In this document: in pieces, positions 2,679 to 23,213 of the stretch
How positions within the stretch are numbered: position 1 is the stretch's first letter
Layout of the letters: the number at the start of each line of letters is the position of its first letter
Origin: Escherichia coli
Lineage (GTDB): Bacteria; Pseudomonadota; Gammaproteobacteria; Enterobacterales; Enterobacteriaceae
DNA: 64,000 nt
Direction: 5' to 3' (one strand)
NCBI RefSeq assembly: GCF_024502345.1
Contig: NZ_JALDNN010000001.1
The notes under the pieces: model-generated
Told to the model about the DNA's origin: nothing
The model's input: the letters and a program-made list of their open reading frames with translations, nothing else
Database searches by the model: none
Position numbers and translations under genes: made by a program

Positions 2679-4139
2679 TTACAGCGCAGCCACACACTCG
2701 CGCGCACCGCGTTCGCACAGCTGCTGATATGCCGCCGTCACTGCGCCAACAAAGTCGGCATTCTGCGGCAGATCATCGGCAAAAATACCGCTCAGGCCCA
2801 GCAGCGCTTTCACACGGTCTGCGCCCTGATACTGCGCGTTGATCTTCTGGAACTCCGCCAGCATCGGGTCGACCACGTCAATGGCATTACCCTGCTCATC
2901 CACGCCCTGGGTGTAACGCATCCAGCCAGCCACGCCCAGCGCCAGGTGACGCCAGCTGCCGCCGTTTTGCAGGTGCAGACGCACCGGGTCCAGCAGACGC
3001 TGCGGTAACTTCTGGCTGCCGTCCATCGCAATCTGCCAGGTACGGTGACGCAGAGACGGGTTGCTGAAACGCTCGATCAGCAACGTCGCATAGGCGTTCA
3101 GGTCCGTACCTTCCGGCATCGACAGCGTTGGCGCTTGTTCCTGCATCATCAGGGAGAAGGCCGCTTTGCGATAATCCGGGTTAGTCATGGTGTCGGCAAT
3201 AGTTTCATAGCCGCCGAGGTAACCGAGGTATGCCAGGAAAGAGTGGCTGCCGTTCAGCATACGCAGCTTCATCATTTCGAACGGCACAACGTCTGCAACG
3301 AACTGTGCGCCCACTTTATCCCAGTCCGGACGACCATTAACGAAGTTATCTTCAATCACCCACTGACGGAACGGTTCGCAGGCAATGGCGCACGGGTCGT
3401 AAACACCCAGCTGGTCAGCAATTTCCTGTAAGGTTTCTGGCGTCGCCGCCGGAACGATGCGGTCAACCATGGTGCACGGGAAGGTGACGTTCTCTTCAAT
3501 CCATGCCGCTAGCTGCGCGTCACGCGCCTGAGCCAGCCCCAGTACCGCGACCTTCGCCACATGACCGTTTTCACGCACGTTATCGCAGGACATCACCGTA
3601 AATGCTTTCAGCCCTTTTTCACGACGCAGACGCAAGGCTTCGACGATGTAACCAATCGCGGACTTCGGCGCAGTTGGGTTTTCCAGATCGTGCTTGATCA
3701 GCGGGTTATTGAGATCCAGTTGACCGCTTGCCGCATCAGCGCAGTAGCCTTTTTCCGTGACCGTTAGAGAGACAATCGCCGTTTGCGGACGCGCCATCGC
3801 GTTGAGAATACCTTCGCAGCCATCGATTTCCGGATGCAGCGCTTCTTTCATCGAACCGATAATTTTCAGCTCGGTGCTCTCTGCGCCTTTTTCCGCTACG
3901 GTGTACAGCAGTTGCTGTTTTTTCAGGTTTTCGATCAGCACGCGGTCGTTGCCTGGCATCAGGTTAACTTCGCAGATGCCCCAGTCGCTGTCGGTGCTTT
4001 CCAGCAGATGATGGGTATACAGCGCCTGGTGCGCGCGGTGAAACGCCCCGCAACCGAGATGCACAATGCGTGATTCCAGACGAGAATGATCCCATGACGG
4101 GCGGGCAACCGGCAGATTGCTGTCAACAATAGTAGTCAT
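2679..4139 (-). CDS. uxuB: D-mannonate oxidoreductase UxuB (486 aa)
   Basis: 486-aa ORF immediately downstream of uxuA, same strand; sequence recognised as UxuB. Confidence 0.9.
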   Translation of the reverse strand: MTTIVDSNLPVARPSWDHSRLESRIVHLGCGAFHRAHQALYTHHLLESTDSDWGICEVNLMPGNDRVLIENLKKQQLLYTVAEKGAESTELKIIGSMKEALHPEIDGCEGILNAMARPQTAIVSLTVTEKGYCADAASGQLDLNNPLIKHDLENPTAPKSAIGYIVEALRLRREKGLKAFTVMSCDNVRENGHVAKVAVLGLAQARDAQLAAWIEENVTFPCTMVDRIVPAATPETLQEIADQLGVYDPCAIACEPFRQWVIEDNFVNGRPDWDKVGAQFVADVVPFEMMKLRMLNGSHSFLAYLGYLGGYETIADTMTNPDYRKAAFSLMMQEQAPTLSMPEGTDLNAYATLLIERFSNPSLRHRTWQIAMDGSQKLPQRLLDPVRLHLQNGGSWRHLALGVAGWMRYTQGVDEQGNAIDVVDPMLAEFQKINAQYQGADRVKALLGLSGIFADDLPQNADFVGAVTAAYQQLCERGARECVAAL

Positions 4140-5404: not shown

Positions 5405-5564
5405 GATTTTTCCTCTTTCACATAGTGGGTTCCACAGCAAAGAGACGCGGAACCCTGGAGTTGTTTAGGTATCCGGATGAACAACCAGACCGCAGCCGTG
5501 GCGTTGCATCGGATGAGATGGCGTATAAGTTCTACCTTTTGGTAAGACATGTCAACCCGAATTC

Positions 5565-5582
5565 TGAAATTGGTTAACCACA
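5565..5582. promoter_or_regulatory. Putative UxuR/ExuR operator upstream of uxuA
   Basis: aaattggttaaccaca contains the perfect palindrome tggttaacca and resembles the AAATTGGT..ACCAATTT hexuronate operator consensus; lies ~160 bp upstream of uxuA. Confidence 0.4.
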
Positions 5583-5741
5583 TCACAAGAATTTCACTCT
5601 CCTGGTTGTTGCTGCAAATTGCAGCAAAAGGTTATCGATGGTTATTGATCAGAGGATGTGACATTCATCGCAACAATGGTTGACCAATTTACATAACATG
5701 TCGCCCAAAATAACAACGGTTCAACCAGGTAAGGTAAAACG

Positions 5742-5947
5742 TTATGCATGTGCTTAACATTCTCTGGGTAGTATTCGGTATCGGCCTGATGCTGGTACTG
5801 ACAAAGACCGCAGGTTCAGACACATTCGCTGCATTAGCAATGCCTCTTAGATAATTTTGACCTGTCAGTAAAAGACACGTTGAAAACCTGGGGTCTGCTG
5901 GAGCTGGTCAACTCCGTGGTTGGGCTGATTATTAGCAAGGTAGCGTA
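5742..5947 (+). pseudogene. gntP: Remnant of gluconate-family permease gene (gntP position): N-terminal ~36 codons plus C-terminal ~30 codons, internal ~1.1 kb missing
   Basis: ORF MHVLNILWVVFGIGLMLVL... hits a stop after 36 codons; a different frame ends ...[25 protein letters not shown] at 5947; both look like the ends of a GntP-type permease divergent from uxuA. Assignment is from recall and synteny. Confidence 0.4.
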
Positions 5948-5949
5948 AA

Positions 5950-6120
5950 AGAACACCAGAGCCTGCCAATGGCAGGCTCTGACTGATGACAAAGTCTAAA
6001 AATGTGCCCGGACAGTCCCCTCGCCCCTCCGGGGAGAGGGTTAGGGTGAGGGGAACAGACCAGCAAAGTGCGCTTTGTTTATGCCAGATGCGACGCTGAC
6101 GCGTCTTATCTGGCCTACAA
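5950..6120. repeat. Intergenic repeat cluster: terminator-like hairpin, GC-rich BoxC-like palindrome, and REP
   Basis: agagcctgccaatggcaggctct hairpin; cccctcgcccctccggggagagggttagggtgagggg; gccagatgcgacgctgacgcgtcttatctggcctac (REP). Confidence 0.5.
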
Positions 6121-6264
6121 AGGGCTAACGTGCAGGTTTTTAGCTTCAGGTAATATTGCGTAACTGCATTAGCAATGCCCTGTGATTTCTTTATTGATAA
6201 ACAAAAGTCGGTGATGCTGCCAACTTACTGATTTAGTGTATGATGGTGTTTTTGAGGTGCTCCA

Positions 6265-6540
6265 GTGGCTTCTGTTTCTATCAGCTGTCCCTCCTGTTCA
6301 GCTACTGACGGGGTGGTGCGTAACGGCAAAAGCACCGCCGGACATCAGCGCTATCTCTGCTCTCACTGCCGTAAAACATGGCAACTGCAGTTCACTTACA
6401 CCGCTTCTCAACCCGGTACGCACCAGAAAATCATTGATATGGCCATGAATGGCGTTGGATGCCGGGCAACCGCCCGCATTATGGGCGTTGGCCTCAACAC
6501 GATTTTCCGCCATTTAAAAAACTCAGGCCGCAGTCGGTAA
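6265..6540 (+). CDS. insA: IS1 InsA (91 aa)
   Basis: [40 protein letters not shown]... recognised as IS1 InsA. Confidence 0.9.
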
Positions 6541-6962
6541 CCTCGCGCATACAGCCGGGCAGTGACGTCATCGTCTGCGCGGAAATGGACGAACAGTGGG
6601 GATACGTCGGGGCTAAATCGCGCCAGCGCTGGCTGTTTTACGCGTATGACAGGCTCCGGAAGACGGTTGTTGCGCACGTATTCGGTGAACGCACTATGGC
6701 GACGCTGGGGCGTCTTATGAGCCTGCTGTCACCCTTTGACGTGGTGATATGGATGACGGATGGCTGGCCGCTGTATGAATCCCGCCTGAAGGGAAAGCTG
6801 CACGTAATCAGCAAGCGATATACGCAGCGAATTGAGCGGCATAACCTGAATCTGAGGCAGCACCTGGCACGGCTGGGACGGAAGTCGCTGTCGTTCTCAA
6901 AATCGGTGGAGCTGCATGACAAAGTCATCGGGCATTATCTGAACATAAAACACTATCAATAA
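6459..6962 (+). CDS. insB: IS1 InsB (167 aa; normally expressed as InsAB' by frameshifting)
   Basis: 167-aa ORF overlapping insA within IS1. Confidence 0.85.
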
Positions 6963-6977
6963 GTTGGAGTCATTACC

Positions 6978-7415
6978 GATTATGTAATCGCCTAAACTCT
7001 TTGATAGCCGACGTTTCAAGCAACATGGATTTGCCTGAATTTAAAGCAGCCATTAATTTATCAAGGGACTGTGCGAACTTACCTGCTGGGTCTGTCGGTG
7101 TATCACGTGTTGTCGAAACAAAATGATAGATGTACATTTCATCTTCATGCTTCGTATTAATGTAAGTAAGATGAATAGCAACCGCATACGCAGGGCCACC
7201 GGACTCACTAAATTCATCACCAACAATTAAGAAATCACCAAAACCATTCATACCCTCTTCTTCATAATTAAGATGAAGATCTGAAAAGAACTCAGAATCG
7301 GGATGGTCAGCATTTCGTCTTTTTTCAAAGCCATCTTTAATTAAAATTCTTTCTGAACCCGAAAAATGTTTTCGATAAGCTTTAGAACAATAGTTAGAAA
7401 TAAATACATGTTTGT
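6978..7415 (-). pseudogene. Partner gene B, C-terminal segment (separated from the N-terminal segment by IS3; 3' end cut by IS1)
   Basis: ORF ...HVFISNYCSKAYRKHFSGSERILIKDGFEKRRNADHPDSEFF...EFRRLHNR is in frame with segment 8674..9082 once IS3 and one TGT copy are removed; the last codon and the stop codon lie inside the IS1 terminus (6973..6977). Confidence 0.7.
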
Positions 7416-7445
7416 TGATCCTACCCACGTAATATGGACACAGAC

Positions 7446-8312
7446 CTAAGCGAGGTTCTGGTTTTCAAATTGTTCCGGACTGAGGCCGCCACACCAACTG
7501 TGCCGCCGCCACCGATTGTAATCACATTCGATATAATTAAACACCGTTGCCCGCATTATTTCCCGGCTGATAAAGTGTTCTCCATGGATACATTCCACTT
7601 TCAGCGAATGAAAGAAGCTTTCCACGCAGGCATTATCGTAGCAGCAACCTTTTGCGCTCATACTTCCACGCAGATTATGCCGCTTCAGTTGCGCCTGATA
7701 ATCTGCTGAACAGTACTGGCCTCCACGGTCCGTGTGAACGATAACGTTCCGGGGCCTCTTACGCCGCCACAGCGCCATCTGCAGGGCATCGCAGGCCAGT
7801 TGCGCCGTCATGCGTGGCGACATTGACCAGCCAATAACGGCACGTGACCACAGGTCAATGACCACTGCCAGATACAGCCAGCCTTCATCTGTACGTAAGT
7901 ACGTGATGTCTCCTGCCCACTTCTGGTTCGGGCCACTGGCGTAAAAATCCTGCTCCAACAGATTTTCTGACACAGGCAGGCCGTGTGCGCGGTAGCTGAC
8001 CGGGCTGAACTTCCGGGAGGCCTTTGCCCTCAGTCCCTGACGGCGCAGGCTTGCCGCCACGGTTTTTACGTTAAAGGGGTAACCCTGAGCACGCAGTTCA
8101 TCCGTCAGGCGTGGGGCACCGTAACGCTGTTTTGACCGGGTAAAAGCCGCGAGGACAACGCTGTCGCAGTGTTGGCGGAACTGCTGACGCGTGCTTATCC
8201 TTGTCCGCCGCTGACACCACGTATACCAGCCGCTGCGGGCCACCCGGAGCACGCGGCACATTGCTTTGATGCTGAACTCAGCCTGATGTTTTTCAATAAA
8301 GACATACTTCAT
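7446..8312 (-). CDS. insF: IS3 transposase OrfB / InsF (288 aa)
   Basis: [36 protein letters not shown]... recognised as IS3 InsF with integrase-core motifs. Confidence 0.9.
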
Positions 8313-8608
8313 TTCAGGCGCTTCGCGAAGTATGTCGCGGCCTTTTGGAGGATAGCCAGCTCTTCATCCCGTTCTGCCAGCTGGCGTTTGAGACGTGCAA
8401 TCTCGGTAGACATCTCCAGTTCACGTTCAGAAGACGTCTGCTGATTTTGCTGTTTACTGCGCCAGTTGTAGAGCTGTGATTCATACAGGCTGAGTTCACG
8501 GGCTGCGGCAGTAACACCGATGCGTTCAGCAAGCTTCAGGGCTTCACTGCGAAATTCAGGCGAATGCTGTTTACGGGGTTTTTTACTGGTTGATACTGTT
8601 TTTGTCAT
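8309..8608 (-). CDS. insE: IS3 OrfA / InsE (99 aa)
   Basis: ORF contains [32 protein letters not shown]...; start set at the MTKTV methionine. Confidence 0.85.
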
Positions 8609-8673
8609 GTGAGTCACCTCTGACTGAGAGTTTACTCACTTAGCCGCGTGTCCACTATTGCTGGGTAAGATCA

Positions 8674-9082
8674 TGTATCCATCCCCAAATCTTTCATGTA
8701 AAGCTTTTGGCTCATCAAACCCGGCATGAATAAAGGTGACTTCATGAACGAGATCTGAATGAAGGAGATTATCAACCTTAGCAATAGTCATACTCTTATC
8801 AAGAAGTATTCCTACAGAAATTTTTTCATACTTACTAAATTCATTTTTTAATAATTGAGCTATACTTTGTCCATCGGTAGAGTGATCACCACATGCCGGA
8901 TTAATGATGACAATAGCCCTACCATCATTTTCTTTTATTGTTTTCAGTGTTCGCTCAAGACCATTGAGAGCCTCTCTCACAGGCTCTATAATTGGAGTAA
9001 AACCTGCCTCAGCCATTACATTAGCAGTGTCTCTAATAGCCAACAGTTCAAATTGTTTCCCACGAAAATAAGGATAATACAT
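8674..9082 (-). pseudogene. Partner gene B, N-terminal segment (136 codons) interrupted by IS3
   Basis: MYYPYFRGKQFELLAIRDTANVMAEAGFTPIIEPVREALNGLERTLK...HERFGDGY then reads into the IS3 end; starts 6 nt after the stop of gene A on the same strand. Confidence 0.7.
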
Positions 9083-9088
9083 AGTTTG

Positions 9089-17920: not shown

Positions 17921-18730
17921 CTAGAAAGAGCCGAGTTCAGAAATCGGTATGTTGAGGAGATGGCTGTTTTTGCTGATAAAGTATTCGAGACTACGGGTTG
18001 TTTCTCCATTCAATGACTTCTCTGCAACAGGCCTGTCTGTATCTTTAATGTGATCTTCTCCTCTGATCTCACTTGTAAAGTCGGGATACAAGACACGAGA
18101 CAGGACCATATTTGAGATTTTTACTTTTTTAAATTTTGCCCAAATCAATAGATCCATCATTGGGATAATATTGTAATCGACAAGTTTTCTTATCTTTGCC
18201 AGTCCAATTTTTTCTGTTTTTACTGGCTCAATTTCATATTCTTTCCTGAGAATGGGTAGCATCGTTTGTAAGGCTGTTATAATTTCTTCATCGCTAGACA
18301 TTCCTAAATCAAATGAAACATACATCTTGCTGCTATTTTGGTTAAGAAAAAAGTCTCTCATAGTTTTTGTTATTGGTTTATTTTTCAACTCTTTTTTGAA
18401 ATCACCATTTTCTTCAAAAAAATCCATGCTAAACATTATTAACTTGTTCTCTAATTTTTTTATATCACCAAAGCTAACCTGAGCAACATGTCTTTGGCCC
18501 TTGCCAAAATGGCCATGATTATTATCTTGTCTGCTTAAAATAGGATTACCTTCAAGGATAGACCTTAAATTTTGATTATCATCTTCCCATCCAAAATTTA
18601 CACTGTCGAAAATCGCTTCTCTAAAGGCAAGCTCGGTATGCAGTTCTTTGATTGTAAGTGATTTTAACTGCTCATAGCTTTCGAGACTAAACCAGATTTT
18701 TAATTCTTCATAAGGGCTTACTACTTTCAT
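17921..18730 (-). CDS. Hypothetical protein (269 aa), AT-rich island cargo between integrase and alpA
   Basis: ORF MKVVSPYEELKIWFSLESYEQLKSLTIKELHTELAFREAIF...; strong Shine-Dalgarno (aggaggg) before the ATG; no recognisable motif. Confidence 0.6.
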   Translation of the reverse strand: MKVVSPYEELKIWFSLESYEQLKSLTIKELHTELAFREAIFDSVNFGWEDDNQNLRSILEGNPILSRQDNNHGHFGKGQRHVAQVSFGDIKKLENKLIMFSMDFFEENGDFKKELKNKPITKTMRDFFLNQNSSKMYVSFDLGMSSDEEIITALQTMLPILRKEYEIEPVKTEKIGLAKIRKLVDYNIIPMMDLLIWAKFKKVKISNMVLSRVLYPDFTSEIRGEDHIKDTDRPVAEKSLNGETTRSLEYFISKNSHLLNIPISELGSF

Positions 18731-18841
18731 TAATCCCTCCTCTGTATTCGAAGCTTGAATGAGTTAACACTGCTTATTTGAATTAATTCTCCCTTAACAA
18801 GGTTGATAAGGGAGAACGATTAATTAACTACTTATTCATAG

Positions 18842-20092
18842 TTAAGTCTTTTTAAAATCAAATGGTGAAACTTGTCGTATTCTAAGGAGGTCAAGGTAAT
18901 CGGCCCACCACTGCAACATAAGCTTTCTCTCATCAAGGTGCTCTGCTTTATGTATGTAGGCAGCACGAACTGAGTTCCGCTCCTGATGGCTCATTTGCCG
19001 TTCAACAGCATCTTTCGACCACAAGCCGGATTCAATCAAGGCACTACAAGCCATAGCCCTGAATCCATGTCCACAGACCTCCACGGTTGTGTCATAGCCC
19101 ATAGACCTCAAAGCCTTGTTTACCGTATTTTCACTCATAGGCTTTCTGAAATCATGGTCGCCAATGAACACAAGTTCATGGTCACCGCTGATCTCTTTAA
19201 TTTCCATCAACACAGCCAATGCCTGACAACTCAAAGGAACAAGGTGTGGAGTTCGCATTTTCGAACCACGGTGCGAATGTTTCACTCCGGGTAATGGCTC
19301 TCGCTCTGCAGGAATAGTCCACATAGCATTCTCTAAATCGATTTCCGACCATCTTGCGAATCTGAGTTCACTGGAACGAATGAAAATGAGCAATGTCAGC
19401 TTTACGGCTAACTTCGTGAGTTTTCTACCCTTGAAACTATCAATTCGTTCTAAAAGTTCTGAGAATCGTTCGAATGGCAAAGCTGGCCTGTGGACTCTTT
19501 TAGCTACCGCAATAGCTCCTGCCATCTCCTGGGCAGGGTTGTAATCTATCAGACCATTCTGGACAGCATATCTCATTACTGCCGTTGTTCTTTGCTGTAA
19601 TCGGGAAGCAACTTCCAGTCGCCCAGAAGCTTCAACAGCTTTGATAGGGGCAAGAAGATCTCTGGTATTAAGTTCGGATATTTTTCTTTTACCAATAGCA
19701 GTAAAGAGACCATCTTCCATGCTTTTTAGAACTCTTTCGCTGTGGGAATTTGACCATTTCCTTTTACAGGCAGTATGCCAGTCTCTCGCAACAGCTTCGA
19801 ATGTCAGGGCTTCGCTTTGCTCAATCTTATCTGCTTTTTTCTTCTCAGAAGGGTCGATACCATCAGATACCAACTTTTTGGCTTCATCTCGCTTCCTGCG
19901 GGCTTCACCAAGAGAGACCATTGGATAAACACCTAATGCTAAAACTTTCTGCTTGCCCCCGAAACGGTATTGGAGTCGCCAGTATTTTGAACCATTGGGG
20001 TTGATCAGCAGGTGCATACCCTGCCCATCTGTGAGTTTGAAAGGTTTGTCGGAGGGCTTGGTAGTCCTAACTTTGATATCAGTGAGTGCCAT
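18842..20092 (-). CDS. P4-like tyrosine integrase (416 aa)
   Basis: MALTDIKVRTTKPSDKPFKLTDGQGMHLLINPNGSKYWRLQYRFGGKQKVLALGVYP... is the typical P4-family integrase N-terminus, with catalytic-domain R...H..R...Y pattern toward the C-terminus; adjacent to the 3' end of leuX. Confidence 0.85.
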   Translation of the reverse strand: MALTDIKVRTTKPSDKPFKLTDGQGMHLLINPNGSKYWRLQYRFGGKQKVLALGVYPMVSLGEARRKRDEAKKLVSDGIDPSEKKKADKIEQSEALTFEAVARDWHTACKRKWSNSHSERVLKSMEDGLFTAIGKRKISELNTRDLLAPIKAVEASGRLEVASRLQQRTTAVMRYAVQNGLIDYNPAQEMAGAIAVAKRVHRPALPFERFSELLERIDSFKGRKLTKLAVKLTLLIFIRSSELRFARWSEIDLENAMWTIPAEREPLPGVKHSHRGSKMRTPHLVPLSCQALAVLMEIKEISGDHELVFIGDHDFRKPMSENTVNKALRSMGYDTTVEVCGHGFRAMACSALIESGLWSKDAVERQMSHQERNSVRAAYIHKAEHLDERKLMLQWWADYLDLLRIRQVSPFDFKKT

Positions 20093-20281
20093 CAGTTGAT
20101 ACCTCCGCTGTTGGTATCAAAATCAATCGAACCGAAGATACCACCAGTTATACCATCATTCGTTGGTATATGTGGATAGAAGTAAGTAGACGTGGACAGA
20201 CTAAGAAAAGCCAAAACTCTGCTTAACTTACTGTTTTTGTGGACTAAAGTAGACGTTAGTAGACTTGAAAAAAACTTTTTA

Positions 20282-20366
20282 TGGTGCCGAAGGCCGGACT
20301 CGAACCGGCACGTATTTCTACGGTTGATTTTGAATCAACTGCGTCTACCGATTTCGCCACTTCGGC
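20282..20366 (-). tRNA. leuX: tRNA-Leu (anticodon CAA), leuX
   Basis: Reverse complement reads GCCGAAGTGGCGAAATCGGTAGACGCAGTTGATTCAAAATCAACCGTAGAAATACGTGCCGGTTCGAGTCCGGCCTTCGGCACCA (85 nt with CCA). Confidence 0.95.
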
Positions 20367-20561
20367 ACTGAAGAGGTATGCGGAAAACGTTGTGGATTAT
20401 ACCTGTCGCACGCCACCATGCAAGCGCCAGCTTGCTCGCACCTCGCTAAGTGCTGAAATTTTCAGCATTGCATACAGCGATGTGTAACCTTTGTCACACT
20501 CCAGGCACCCCGCCCTGCCATGCTCTACACTTCCCAGACAACACCAGAGAAGGACCAAAAA

Positions 20562-21581
20562 ATGTCGATGATAAAAAGCTATGCCGCAAAAGAAGCGGGT
20601 GGAGAACTGGAAGTTTATGAGTACGATCCCGGTGAACTGAAGCCACAAGATGTTGAAGTGCAGGTGGATTACTGCGGGATCTGTCATTCCGATCTGTCAA
20701 TGATCGATAACGAATGGGGATTTTCACAATATCCACTGGTTGCCGGGCATGAGGTGATTGGGCGCGTGGTGGCGCTCGGGAGCGCCGCGCAGGATAAAGG
20801 TTTGCAGGTCGGTCAGCGTGTCGGGATTGGCTGGACGGCGCGTAGCTGCGGGCATTGCGATGCCTGTATTAGCGGTAATCAGATCAACTGTGAGCAAGGT
20901 GCGGTGCCGACGATTATGAATCGCGGCGGTTTTGCCGAGAAGTTGCGTGCAGACTGGCAATGGGTGATTCCACTGCCAGAAAATATTGATATCGAGTCCG
21001 CCGGGCCGCTGCTGTGTGGTGGTATCACGGTCTTTAAACCACTGTTGATGCACCATGTCACTGCTACCAGCCGCGTTGGGGTAATTGGTATTGGCGGGCT
21101 GGGGCATATCGCTATAAAACTTCTGCACGCAATGGGATGCGAGGTGACAGCCTTTAGTTCGAATCCGGCGAAAGAGCAGGAAGTACTGGCGATGGGTGCC
21201 GATAAAGTGGTGAATAGCCGCGATCCGCAGGCACTGAAAACTCTGGCGGGGCAGTTTGATCTCATTATCAATACTGTGAACGTCAGCCTCGACTGGCAGC
21301 CTTATTTTGAGGCGCTGACCTATGGCGGTAATTTCCATACGGTCGGTGCGGTACTCACGCCGCTGTCTGTTCCGGCCTTTACGTTAATTGCGGGCGACCG
21401 CAGCGTCTCTGGTTCAGCAACCGGCACACCTTATGAGCTGCGTAAGCTGATGCGCTTTGCCGCCCGCAGCAAGGTTGCGCCGACCACCGAACTGTTCCCG
21501 ATGTCGAAAATAAACGACGCCATCCAGCATGTACGCGATGGTAAAGCGCGCTACCGCGTGGTCCTGAAAGCCGACTTCTGA
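20562..21581 (+). CDS. ahr: NADPH-dependent aldehyde reductase Ahr/YjgB (339 aa)
   Basis: [45 protein letters not shown]... zinc-ADH signature; start set at the internal ATG at 20562. Confidence 0.9.
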
Positions 21582-21710
21582 TCCCTTTGCCGGGTGCCTG
21601 TCGCCCGGCACTTAAATCTCTTTGGAAGGCGTCTCGCAATCTGCTGAATTTAGCGGTGAAGAGTGCGCAGCCGTTGCCTATACTCCAGGCAGGAAACTGG
21701 AGGATATCTC

Positions 21711-23213
21711 ATGAGCGAACCCCTGTTAATTGCCCGCACGCCGGACACAGAACTGTTTTTAATGCCGGGAATGGCTAACCGTCACGGGCTGATTACTGGC
21801 GCAACGGGGACGGGTAAAACCGTTACGCTGCAAAAACTGGCAGAGTCATTGTCGGAAATCGGCGTGCCGGTGTTTATGGCTGATGTGAAAGGCGATCTGA
21901 CCGGCATCGCGCAGGCAGGAACGGCATCGGAAAAACTGCTCGCAAGGCTTAAAAATATCGGCGTAAATGACTGGCAACCGCATGCCAATCCGGTGGTGAT
22001 GTGGGATATCTTTGGCGAGAAAGGCCATCCGGTGCGGGCGACGGTTTCAGACCTGGGGCCGCTGTTGCTGGCGCGTTTGTTGAATCTCAACGATGTGCAA
22101 TCTGGCGTCCTGAATATCATCTTCCGCATTGCTGACGATCAGGGGCTGTTACTGCTCGACTTTAAAGATTTGCGGGCGATTACCCAGTACATCGGCGATA
22201 ACGCCAAATCTTTCCAGAATCAGTACGGTAATATCAGTAGCGCATCGGTTGGTGCCATCCAGCGCGGATTACTGTCGCTGGAGCAACAAGGTGCGGCGCA
22301 TTTCTTTGGCGAGCCGATGCTGGATATCAAAGACTGGATGCGCACCGATGCCAACGGTAAAGGCGTTATCAATATCCTCAGCGCCGAGAAACTTTATCAG
22401 ATGCCGAAACTGTACGCCGCCAGCCTGCTGTGGATGCTTTCAGAGTTGTATGAACAATTGCCGGAAGCGGGCGATCTGGAGAAACCAAAACTGGTGTTTT
22501 TCTTCGACGAGGCACATCTGCTGTTTAACGATGCCCCGCAGGTACTGCTGGATAAGATTGAGCAGGTGATAAGGCTTATTCGCTCAAAAGGCGTGGGCGT
22601 CTGGTTCGTTTCGCAAAACCCGTCTGATATTCCAGATAATGTGCTCGGCCAGCTCGGTAATCGCGTTCAACACGCTTTGCGGGCTTTTACGCCAAAAGAT
22701 CAGAAAGCAGTGAAGGCAGCGGCGCAAACCATGCGGGCCAATCCGGCATTTGATACGGAAAAGGCAATCCAGGAACTGGGGACCGGCGAGGCGTTAATCT
22801 CGTTTCTCGATGCAAAAGGAAGTCCTTCTGTGGTGGAACGGGCGATGGTGATTGCGCCTTGTTCGCGGATGGGGCCGGTGACGGAAGATGAGCGTAATGG
22901 CTTGATTAATCACTCTCCGGTGTATGGCAAGTACGAGGATGACGTGGACCGGGAATCCGCCTATGAGATGTTGCAAAAAGGCGTACAGGCAAGCACCGAG
23001 CAGCAAAATAATCCTGCCGTGAAAAGGAAAGAGGTAGCGGTAGATGACGGCATTCTTGGTGGATTGAAGGATATTTTGTTTGGCACTACCGGACCACGCG
23101 GCGGGAAGAAAGATGGTGTTGTGCAAACAATGGCGAAAAGCGCCGCCCGCCAGGTGACGAATCAGATTGTGCGTGGAATGTTGGGGAGTTTGCTGGGGGG
23201 GAGAAAAAGGTAA
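21711..23213 (+). CDS. yjgR: HerA-like ATPase, DUF853-family protein YjgR (500 aa)
   Basis: [39 protein letters not shown]... with Walker A motif GTGKT; start at the ATG after ggagg. Confidence 0.85.

Follow-up and report, generated by a model that had tools for sequence, protein, structure and literature searches.

Which protein reads the short direct repeats that lie between the leuX tRNA gene and the neighbouring integrase gene in this Escherichia coli DNA is the question raised by the locus. The window, which is the whole 64,000-nucleotide stretch that was analysed, holds them in a 189-bp leader (20093-20281) that extends from the 3′ end of the leuX tRNA to the start of int. In the attachment site of a P4-family leuX island, this leader makes up the int-proximal (P) arm; the features that border it are as follows.

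20282..20366, minus strand: leuX, tRNA-Leu(CAA), called by ARAGORN and by the Rfam tRNA model (59 bits).
20282-20301: the 3′ 20 nt of leuX, TGGTGCCGAAGGCCGGACTC, identical to the annotated P4 attP core (X51522 4078-4097).
18842..20092, minus strand: int, a P4-family tyrosine integrase of 416 aa (Pfam), with its ATG at 20092.

Int consists of an N-terminal Arm-DNA-bind_3 domain (PF13356, 1e-27) followed by Phage_int_M (PF22022) and Phage_integrase (PF00589), as assigned by Pfam. Past int, the gene order is a DUF6387 gene (17921-18730), a truncated AlpA-family gene, and an autotransporter gene with IS remnants, after which the chromosomal genes uxuA, uxuB and uxuR follow. The autotransporter ORF (13318-16506, 1062 aa) contains about 12 tandem 9-bp units, CCTGACAAC, at 15439-15591, which code for Pro-Asp-Asn.

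The two strings singled out in the initial annotation, aagtagacgtgga (20184-20196) and aagtagacgttagtagac (20247-20264), are present within 1 nt of where they had been placed, and their assignment to the attachment-site arm adjoining int is borne out by their position in the leuX-int spacer. Their common element, AGTAGAC, occurs three times on the plus strand within 80 bp (20185-20264), at 20185, 20248 and 20258, and a single further copy is found on either strand of the window beyond the leader (9940, minus strand). The total of four copies is unremarkable against the 2.8 expected in 64 kb. Three same-strand copies within 80 bp were encountered in none of 150 Markov-simulated 64-kb sequences, and the expected number of such clusters is ~1e-5. 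Read along the int-sense strand, the leader displays five GTCYAC hexamers in one orientation and in two blocks 63 bp apart; in plus-strand coordinates they occupy 20259-64, 20249-54 and 20239-44, with 10-bp phasing, and 20192-97 and 20186-91. The opposite strand of the leader has no copy. The expectation for GTCYAC is 0.04 per 189 nt, and none of 5000 simulations matched for composition yielded five copies. The GTCTAC at 20186-91 has a degenerate companion in phase with it, GTCTGT, 10 bp away (20196-20201). Both blocks sit in an imperfect duplication of 26 nt, whose copies (20184-20209 and 20247-20272) are offset by 63 bp. The blocks are termed Box II and Box I.

20239..20264, minus strand: Box II, core-proximal, GTCTAC-taac-GTCTAC-ttta-GTCCAC, direct repeats with 10-bp phasing; candidate AlpA (RDF) sites.
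20186..20201, minus strand: Box I, int-proximal, overlapping GTCTGT/GTCCAC/GTCTAC, adjoining the candidate int -35; candidate AlpA sites.

Box II includes two of the three AGTAGAC copies, and Box I contains the first string of the initial annotation, AGTAGACGT. The hexamers of Box I overlap at 4-6-bp offsets and are less regular than those in relatives. A lack of conservation in related junctions, which had been named as the observation that would refute the arm-type reading of the motif, is not what the alignments display: five int-leuX junctions, with overall identity as low as 68%, have invariant GTnGAC cores. Where the window has GTAGAC, the homologous positions of the EC0430/E19 lineage read GTTGAC, a concerted change across the copies.

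A second repeat class, TG(N)TGGTAT, is present in four copies between the boxes and int (20109-20172), intermingled with the expression signals of int.

20161..20172, plus strand: arm-type copy CGTTGGTATATG, inverted relative to int, with the same consensus as the tandem pair.
20135..20158, minus strand: tandem arm-type pair TGATGGTATAAC + TGGTGGTATCTT, 12-bp spacing, the positional equivalent of P4 repeats 3942-3965.
20126..20133, minus strand: conserved GGTTCGAT box (ATCGAACC on the plus strand), between the tandem and inverted arm-type copies.
20109..20120, plus strand: inverted arm-type copy TGTTGGTATCAA, corresponding in P4 to the repeat overlapping the start codon of int.
20102-20106: Shine-Dalgarno CCTCC of int, just downstream of the inverted arm-type copy 20109-20120.
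20176..20147, int strand: candidate int promoter, -35 TCCACA at 20176..20171, 18-nt spacer, -10 TATAAC at 20152..20147.

The TGGTA-N7-TGGTA pattern of the tandem pair is expected 0.04 times by chance, and its first copy contains the candidate -10 hexamer. The candidate promoter matches the consensus at 9 of 12 positions and was not called by a consensus promoter scan. The GTTGGTA of the copy at 20161..20172 is invariant in the leuX-junction alignment, as is ATCGAACCG of the box at 20126..20133. Almost all lineages have an inverted copy at the int start, and it always matches the tandem repeat of the same lineage. We also note that the GGTTCGAT/GTTCAAT box, which resembles a tRNA T-arm, is conserved in almost every int leader of the P4 family that was inspected, regardless of arm type and of the tRNA targeted.

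Three lines of evidence identify the TGGTAT repeats. The P4 GenBank record annotates 12-mers of the TTGGGGGCATAT type as “attP arm sequence repeat”, in the arrangement of the TGGTAT copies: two tandem 12-mers immediately before int, one inverted 12-mer where int starts and, past the core, another tandem pair. The P4 arm repeats were reportedly described by Pierson and Kahn in 1987. A comparison with these repeats had been proposed as a check of the AGTAGAC motifs; it reveals that the positions in question are filled by TGATGGTATAAC/TGGTGGTATCTT and TGTTGGTATCAA, not by AGTAGAC.

The second line is the occurrence of TGGTAT in both arms. Genomes were scanned for TGGTA-N7-TGGTA with the leuX core 40-70 nt further on, and 44 loci matched; 42 of them are clear P′ arms joined to a leuX core copy in Enterobacterales genomes (Proteus, Providencia, Serratia, Pectobacterium, Citrobacter, Kluyvera, Pantoea and others); in these 42 genomes the pattern lies ~55-65 nt from the core copy. 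The island of E. coli E19 carries TGTTGGTA tandem repeats at both ends, in the leuX-proximal leader and at the distal junction 56 kb away. A tandem array on a viral contig shows a similar pattern with GAGTATA: repeats from the P arm of one element recur in the P′ arm that precedes the next core copy. The same P′-arm pattern yielded four chance matches only in a scan of the viral contigs, and a search of the 10-kb flanks of viral loci found no downstream core copy. The P′ arms could not be paired with their own int, as all Int matches in the P′-arm loci belong to the next element of a tandem array. Upstream of the P′ tandem arm repeats, many elements (L133-L176, e.g. L146 13540-13630) share GATTCGAGTCCCAAAATCAACGATTTAATG, which contains a perfect IHF consensus, AATCAACGATTTA, together with a T-arm-like string, GTTCGAGTCC. 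An odd short tandem repeat at the att junction is seen in L170, where the core 3′ end is followed by three copies of CACCTTCG and then CACCA.

The third line is co-variation with the N-terminal domain of Int. In lineages that keep TGGTA, the N-terminal 90 residues are conserved at least as well as the rest of the protein (L036: 74% vs 66%), whereas a switch of arm type is accompanied by a disproportionate loss of N-domain identity (L017, GAGTATA: 60% vs 78%). A strand motif of Int also tracks the arm repeat, RLQYR (WR(L)QYR) being paired with TGGTA, RLRYR with CGGGTA, and RMKYR with GGGGGCAT. Because of their P4 arm positions, their occurrence in both arms and their co-variation with the Int N-domain, we conclude with high confidence that the TGGTAT repeats at 20109-20172 are the true integrase arm-type sites.

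The GTCYAC repeats behave differently from the TGGTAT repeats in each of these settings. They are confined to the P arm, between the core and the arm-type sites; GTCYAY has 3 matches, counted on both strands, in 43 P′ arms, which is the background level. The GTCTA core of the middle Box II copy is invariant in 9 leaders, including those of elements at other tRNAs. GTCYAY persists alongside GGGGCAT, GGGGGTAT/C or TGTGTATAG arm repeats and with Int proteins that are 35-50% identical. Elements at argW-type tRNA genes with GGGGCAT or GGGGGTAT arms carry four or five sense-strand GTCYAY copies, at -171/-161/-108/-98 or -149/-139/-86/-76. In these elements, which encode class-A AlpA (defined below), the pairs at -171/-161 or -149/-139 are equivalent to Box II and those at -108/-98 or -86/-76 to Box I.

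The element itself encodes, 1.1 kb beyond int in this lineage, a protein of the family that could read such boxes.

17602..17754, minus strand: alpA′, codons 1-51 of 68, the 5′ part of an AlpA-family RDF gene (tblastn, 98% identity to L006:15225-15431).

The intact relative, L006:15225-15431, matches Pfam PF05930 Phage_AlpA (2.5e-19), and the AlpA of the window lineage gives weak PDB matches to a solved AlpA-family protein and to TorI. The full-length AlpA of E. coli PapRG-04-4 (WP_004200782.1, 68 aa) has 98% identity to the part left in the window. Class-A AlpA proteins are defined by the recognition helix (S/G)(K/R)AW(I/V)Y. Their loci contain 4-5 sense-strand GTCYAY copies at fixed positions, in contrast to 0-2 copies for the other AlpA classes. 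The helix-to-box pairings are (S/G)(K/R)AW(I/V)Y with GTCYAY, SKAWLYKQL with GTCT(C/T)T, SR(T/A)RIYEDI with GTCCCAC or TCTCGTT, and the Vis-like proteins of P4 relatives with RTCCG. In a second, independent sample, drawn with AlpA as the query and composed of co-oriented modules, 17 of the 18 modules with an AlpA at least 58% identical have 2-4 sense GTCYAY copies and none antisense, whereas all four modules with an AlpA at most 51% identical have 0 copies. Two of those four (L230 and L239) combine the TGTTGGTA arm type of the window with boxes of a different kind, CGTCC and GTTTC. An unbiased count of the most-repeated 5-mer per leader follows the helix class as well (GTCTA/TCTAC, GTCCG, TCTCG, CGTCC, GTTTC). 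One module whose AlpA is 62% identical (L217) has NTCTAC repeats rather than GTCTAC.

These correlative data, from two independently drawn samples, indicate that the boxes co-vary with the AlpA recognition helix at the level of classes. Part of the association could reflect shared ancestry, since AlpA, leader and int are inherited as one module; the conservation of the boxes amid diverged flanks and switched arm types argues against such an origin. Within 10-20 kb of int, no AlpA gene was found in the box-bearing elements L008/L073 and E. coli DEF2, nor in EC0430. Upstream of alpA, GTCYAY is absent in four lineages, and there is no sign of autoregulation.

We therefore consider that the AGTAGAC/GTCYAC repeats are probably binding sites of the AlpA-family RDF (winged-helix excisionase) of the island, laid out as two P-arm blocks between the core and the arm-type sites. 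The geometry is that of an RDF array, with same-strand sites at 20264/20254/20244 and 20201/20191 spaced 10 bp apart, as is the location in one arm only, between core and arm-type sites; a cognate RDF gene, alpA, belongs to the element, with 51 of its 68 codons left in the window. In this scheme, AlpA monomers would occupy successive same-strand repeats head-to-tail, each offset by one helical turn, and the segment that separates the core from the TGGTAT arm-type sites would be bent as a result. The bend would bring the core within reach of Int molecules anchored at the arm sites through their N-terminal domain, so that the excisive complex could form. Box I adjoins the candidate -35, and the candidate -10 lies inside the tandem arm pair; transcription of int would therefore be repressed as well, by AlpA bound at Box I and by Int bound at that pair.

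Such an arrangement has parallels in other elements. The Xis protein of phage lambda (sites X1, X1.5 and X2) and Apl of phage 186 are small winged-helix RDFs that bend DNA from head-to-tail direct repeats, spaced by about one helical turn and located in one arm only. Lambda and 186 differ from the present case in their unrelated integrase subfamilies and motifs, and the lambda Xis sites form a single block. P4 shares with the window the Int family, an identical 20-nt leuX core, and the order of elements: core, two blocks of short GTC-containing repeats, tandem 12-bp arm pair, inverted arm copy and int start. The two differ in the arm repeat (GGGGGCAT in P4, TGGTAT here) and in the box motif (RTCCG in P4, GTCYAC here); furthermore, the window has an extra inverted arm copy (20161-20172) and a separate Shine-Dalgarno sequence, whereas an arm repeat of P4 overlaps the ATG. 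Vis of P4, an AlpA-family RDF, was reportedly found by Cali et al. (2004) to bind two boxes (Box I and II) between int and the core. The parallel between those boxes and the present ones is positional. In the P4 sequence, GTCC[GA] reaches its highest density in the int leader and in front of vis, although the counts are small. Both Int and Vis of P4 down-regulate int (PMC7286903; PMC2951348).

The closest experimental counterpart is KplE1 (CPS-53). Its attL contains five footprinted TorI sites, with the cores GTTCG, GATCG and GTCCG, in two blocks between argW and intS (PMC2951348). The IntS arm-type sites overlap the -10 and the TorI sites adjoin the -35 of PintS, and both TorI and IntS repress intS (PMC2951348). 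The window shares with KplE1 two blocks of RDF sites between the tRNA 3′ end and int and short cores of the G-T-C type, and TorI is a weak sequence relative of the window-lineage AlpA. KplE1 differs in its integrase lineage, its target tRNA and its site spacing (12 nt and 2 nt), and its sites were established by footprinting and mutagenesis, whereas those of the window are deduced from sequence. A direct-repeat arrangement with a period of one helical turn is typical of RDF sites (PMC7498355). Publications consulted on AlpA, ICEKp1 and ROD21 do not list the sequences of such sites.

The reading put forward in the initial annotation, that the AGTAGAC repeats are arm-type sites bound by the Int N-terminal domain, would account for direct repeats that lie in the int-proximal att arm and are kept in close relatives, and Int does have an arm-binding domain. 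We nevertheless regard it as very unlikely. TGGTAT holds the arm-type role: it occupies the P4 arm-repeat positions, recurs in P′ arms from 42 genomes as well as at either end of the E19 island, and tracks the Int N-domain both in the identity of residues 1-90 and in the strand residues. GTCYAC departs from arm-type behaviour in three tests; the P′ arms are without it, and it is retained where Int and the arm type differ. Another factor altogether, be it an element-encoded regulator, a host nucleoid protein or a protein acting on an int-promoter operator unrelated to excision, is an explanation to which we give a minor though appreciable probability. It would suit those box-bearing relatives in which no AlpA is detectable nearby, and Box I is inferred to abut the candidate int promoter. 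A host protein is difficult to reconcile with the lineage-specific motifs (GTCTAC, GTCAAC, RTCCG) that occupy the same position within Escherichia, and for IHF in particular the consensus WATCAANNNNTTR is absent from the leader at up to one mismatch. As for the element's own products, DUF6387 was considered as a common box-binding factor and rejected: it is confined to the lineage of the window, and the class-A AlpA elements L037, L043 and L055 lack it and yet keep the boxes.

It is highly improbable that the repeats lack a function and simply record the decay of a leuX terminator hairpin or a neutral duplication of 26 nt. The two blocks do look like an ancient duplication, and other leuX-island lineages have an AGACGTC-containing terminator hairpin directly after the core; nevertheless, the repeats are direct and not inverted, and their cores are kept while the flanks diverge, even in elements at argW-type and other tRNAs. 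A rho-independent leuX terminator was rejected, with no terminator-like site on the minus strand and an RNA fold of 20170-20290 that is no better than that of shuffled sequences (z = +0.36). Rfam reported only the tRNA over the spacer. The hairpin of the other lineages lies right after the core in L177, L156 and L139, as AGACGTC..GACGTCT-T5 or AGACCTCAACTGAGGTCT-T7, and the window lineage has none (20265-20281); transcription of leuX might therefore read through into int. The inverted arm-type copies also allow an 11-bp hairpin in the int 5′UTR just before the Shine-Dalgarno sequence (20087-20160, minus strand), the stability of which is not above that of shuffled controls (z = -0.21). This hairpin would mimic RNA covariation across lineages, and protein sites at the DNA level explain it.

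If AlpA is indeed the protein that binds the boxes, a broader proposal can be framed: GTCYAC may be the shared “excision code” of one widespread AlpA clade, with the helix (S/G)(K/R)AWIYRL, whose members act on elements that differ in tRNA target (leuX, argW-type and others) and have unrelated arm types. We hold this extension only tentatively and think it rather doubtful. Were it true, one AlpA could trigger or repress several otherwise independent islands in a cell, and islands with a destroyed alpA and intact boxes and int would stay controllable in trans.

The present copy of the island is itself such a case of a destroyed alpA: an IS903-like element (16544-17603) interrupts the gene and leaves the first 51 of its 68 codons. 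On the far side of uxuR, at a distance of 16.3 kb, is a second IS903-like copy (277-1336) in inverted orientation. Neither a second leuX core copy nor TGGTA-N7-TGGTA, either of which could mark the distal att, was found on the island side of the window. Between int and uxuA there is no distal core copy or P′ arm, and the island (5441-20281) runs via IS remnants into uxuA. The distal att and P′ arm of the related island in E. coli PapRG-04-4 were likewise not found within ~70 kb. The fim region, which lies between leuX and uxuA in E. coli PapRG-04-4, is absent from the window. The region looks deleted or rearranged and the island immobilised. With a truncated alpA and no distal att site, the boxes and arm sites in the window are probably idle relics; the intact int, arm sites and boxes could at most serve int autoregulation or a response to a related AlpA in trans.

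The practical consequence for this module is small, as it is a decayed remnant, and the biology is expected from P4 and KplE1, the att layout being ordinary though cleanly resolved. What the analysis contributes is the separation of two classes of protein-binding repeats in the att site of a common family of leuX islands, and with it testable site predictions, TGGTAT for the Int N-domain and GTCYAC for AlpA. It also provides a simple comparative rule for annotating the att arms of tRNA-borne islands, in which arm-type sites follow the integrase and occur in both arms, and RDF boxes follow the excisionase and occur in one arm.

Compared with 5426 complete E. coli genomes, the core genes ahr and yjgR (20520-23213), on the other side of leuX, reach no more than 97.4% identity. 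By this sequence divergence, the host may belong to a divergent Escherichia lineage.
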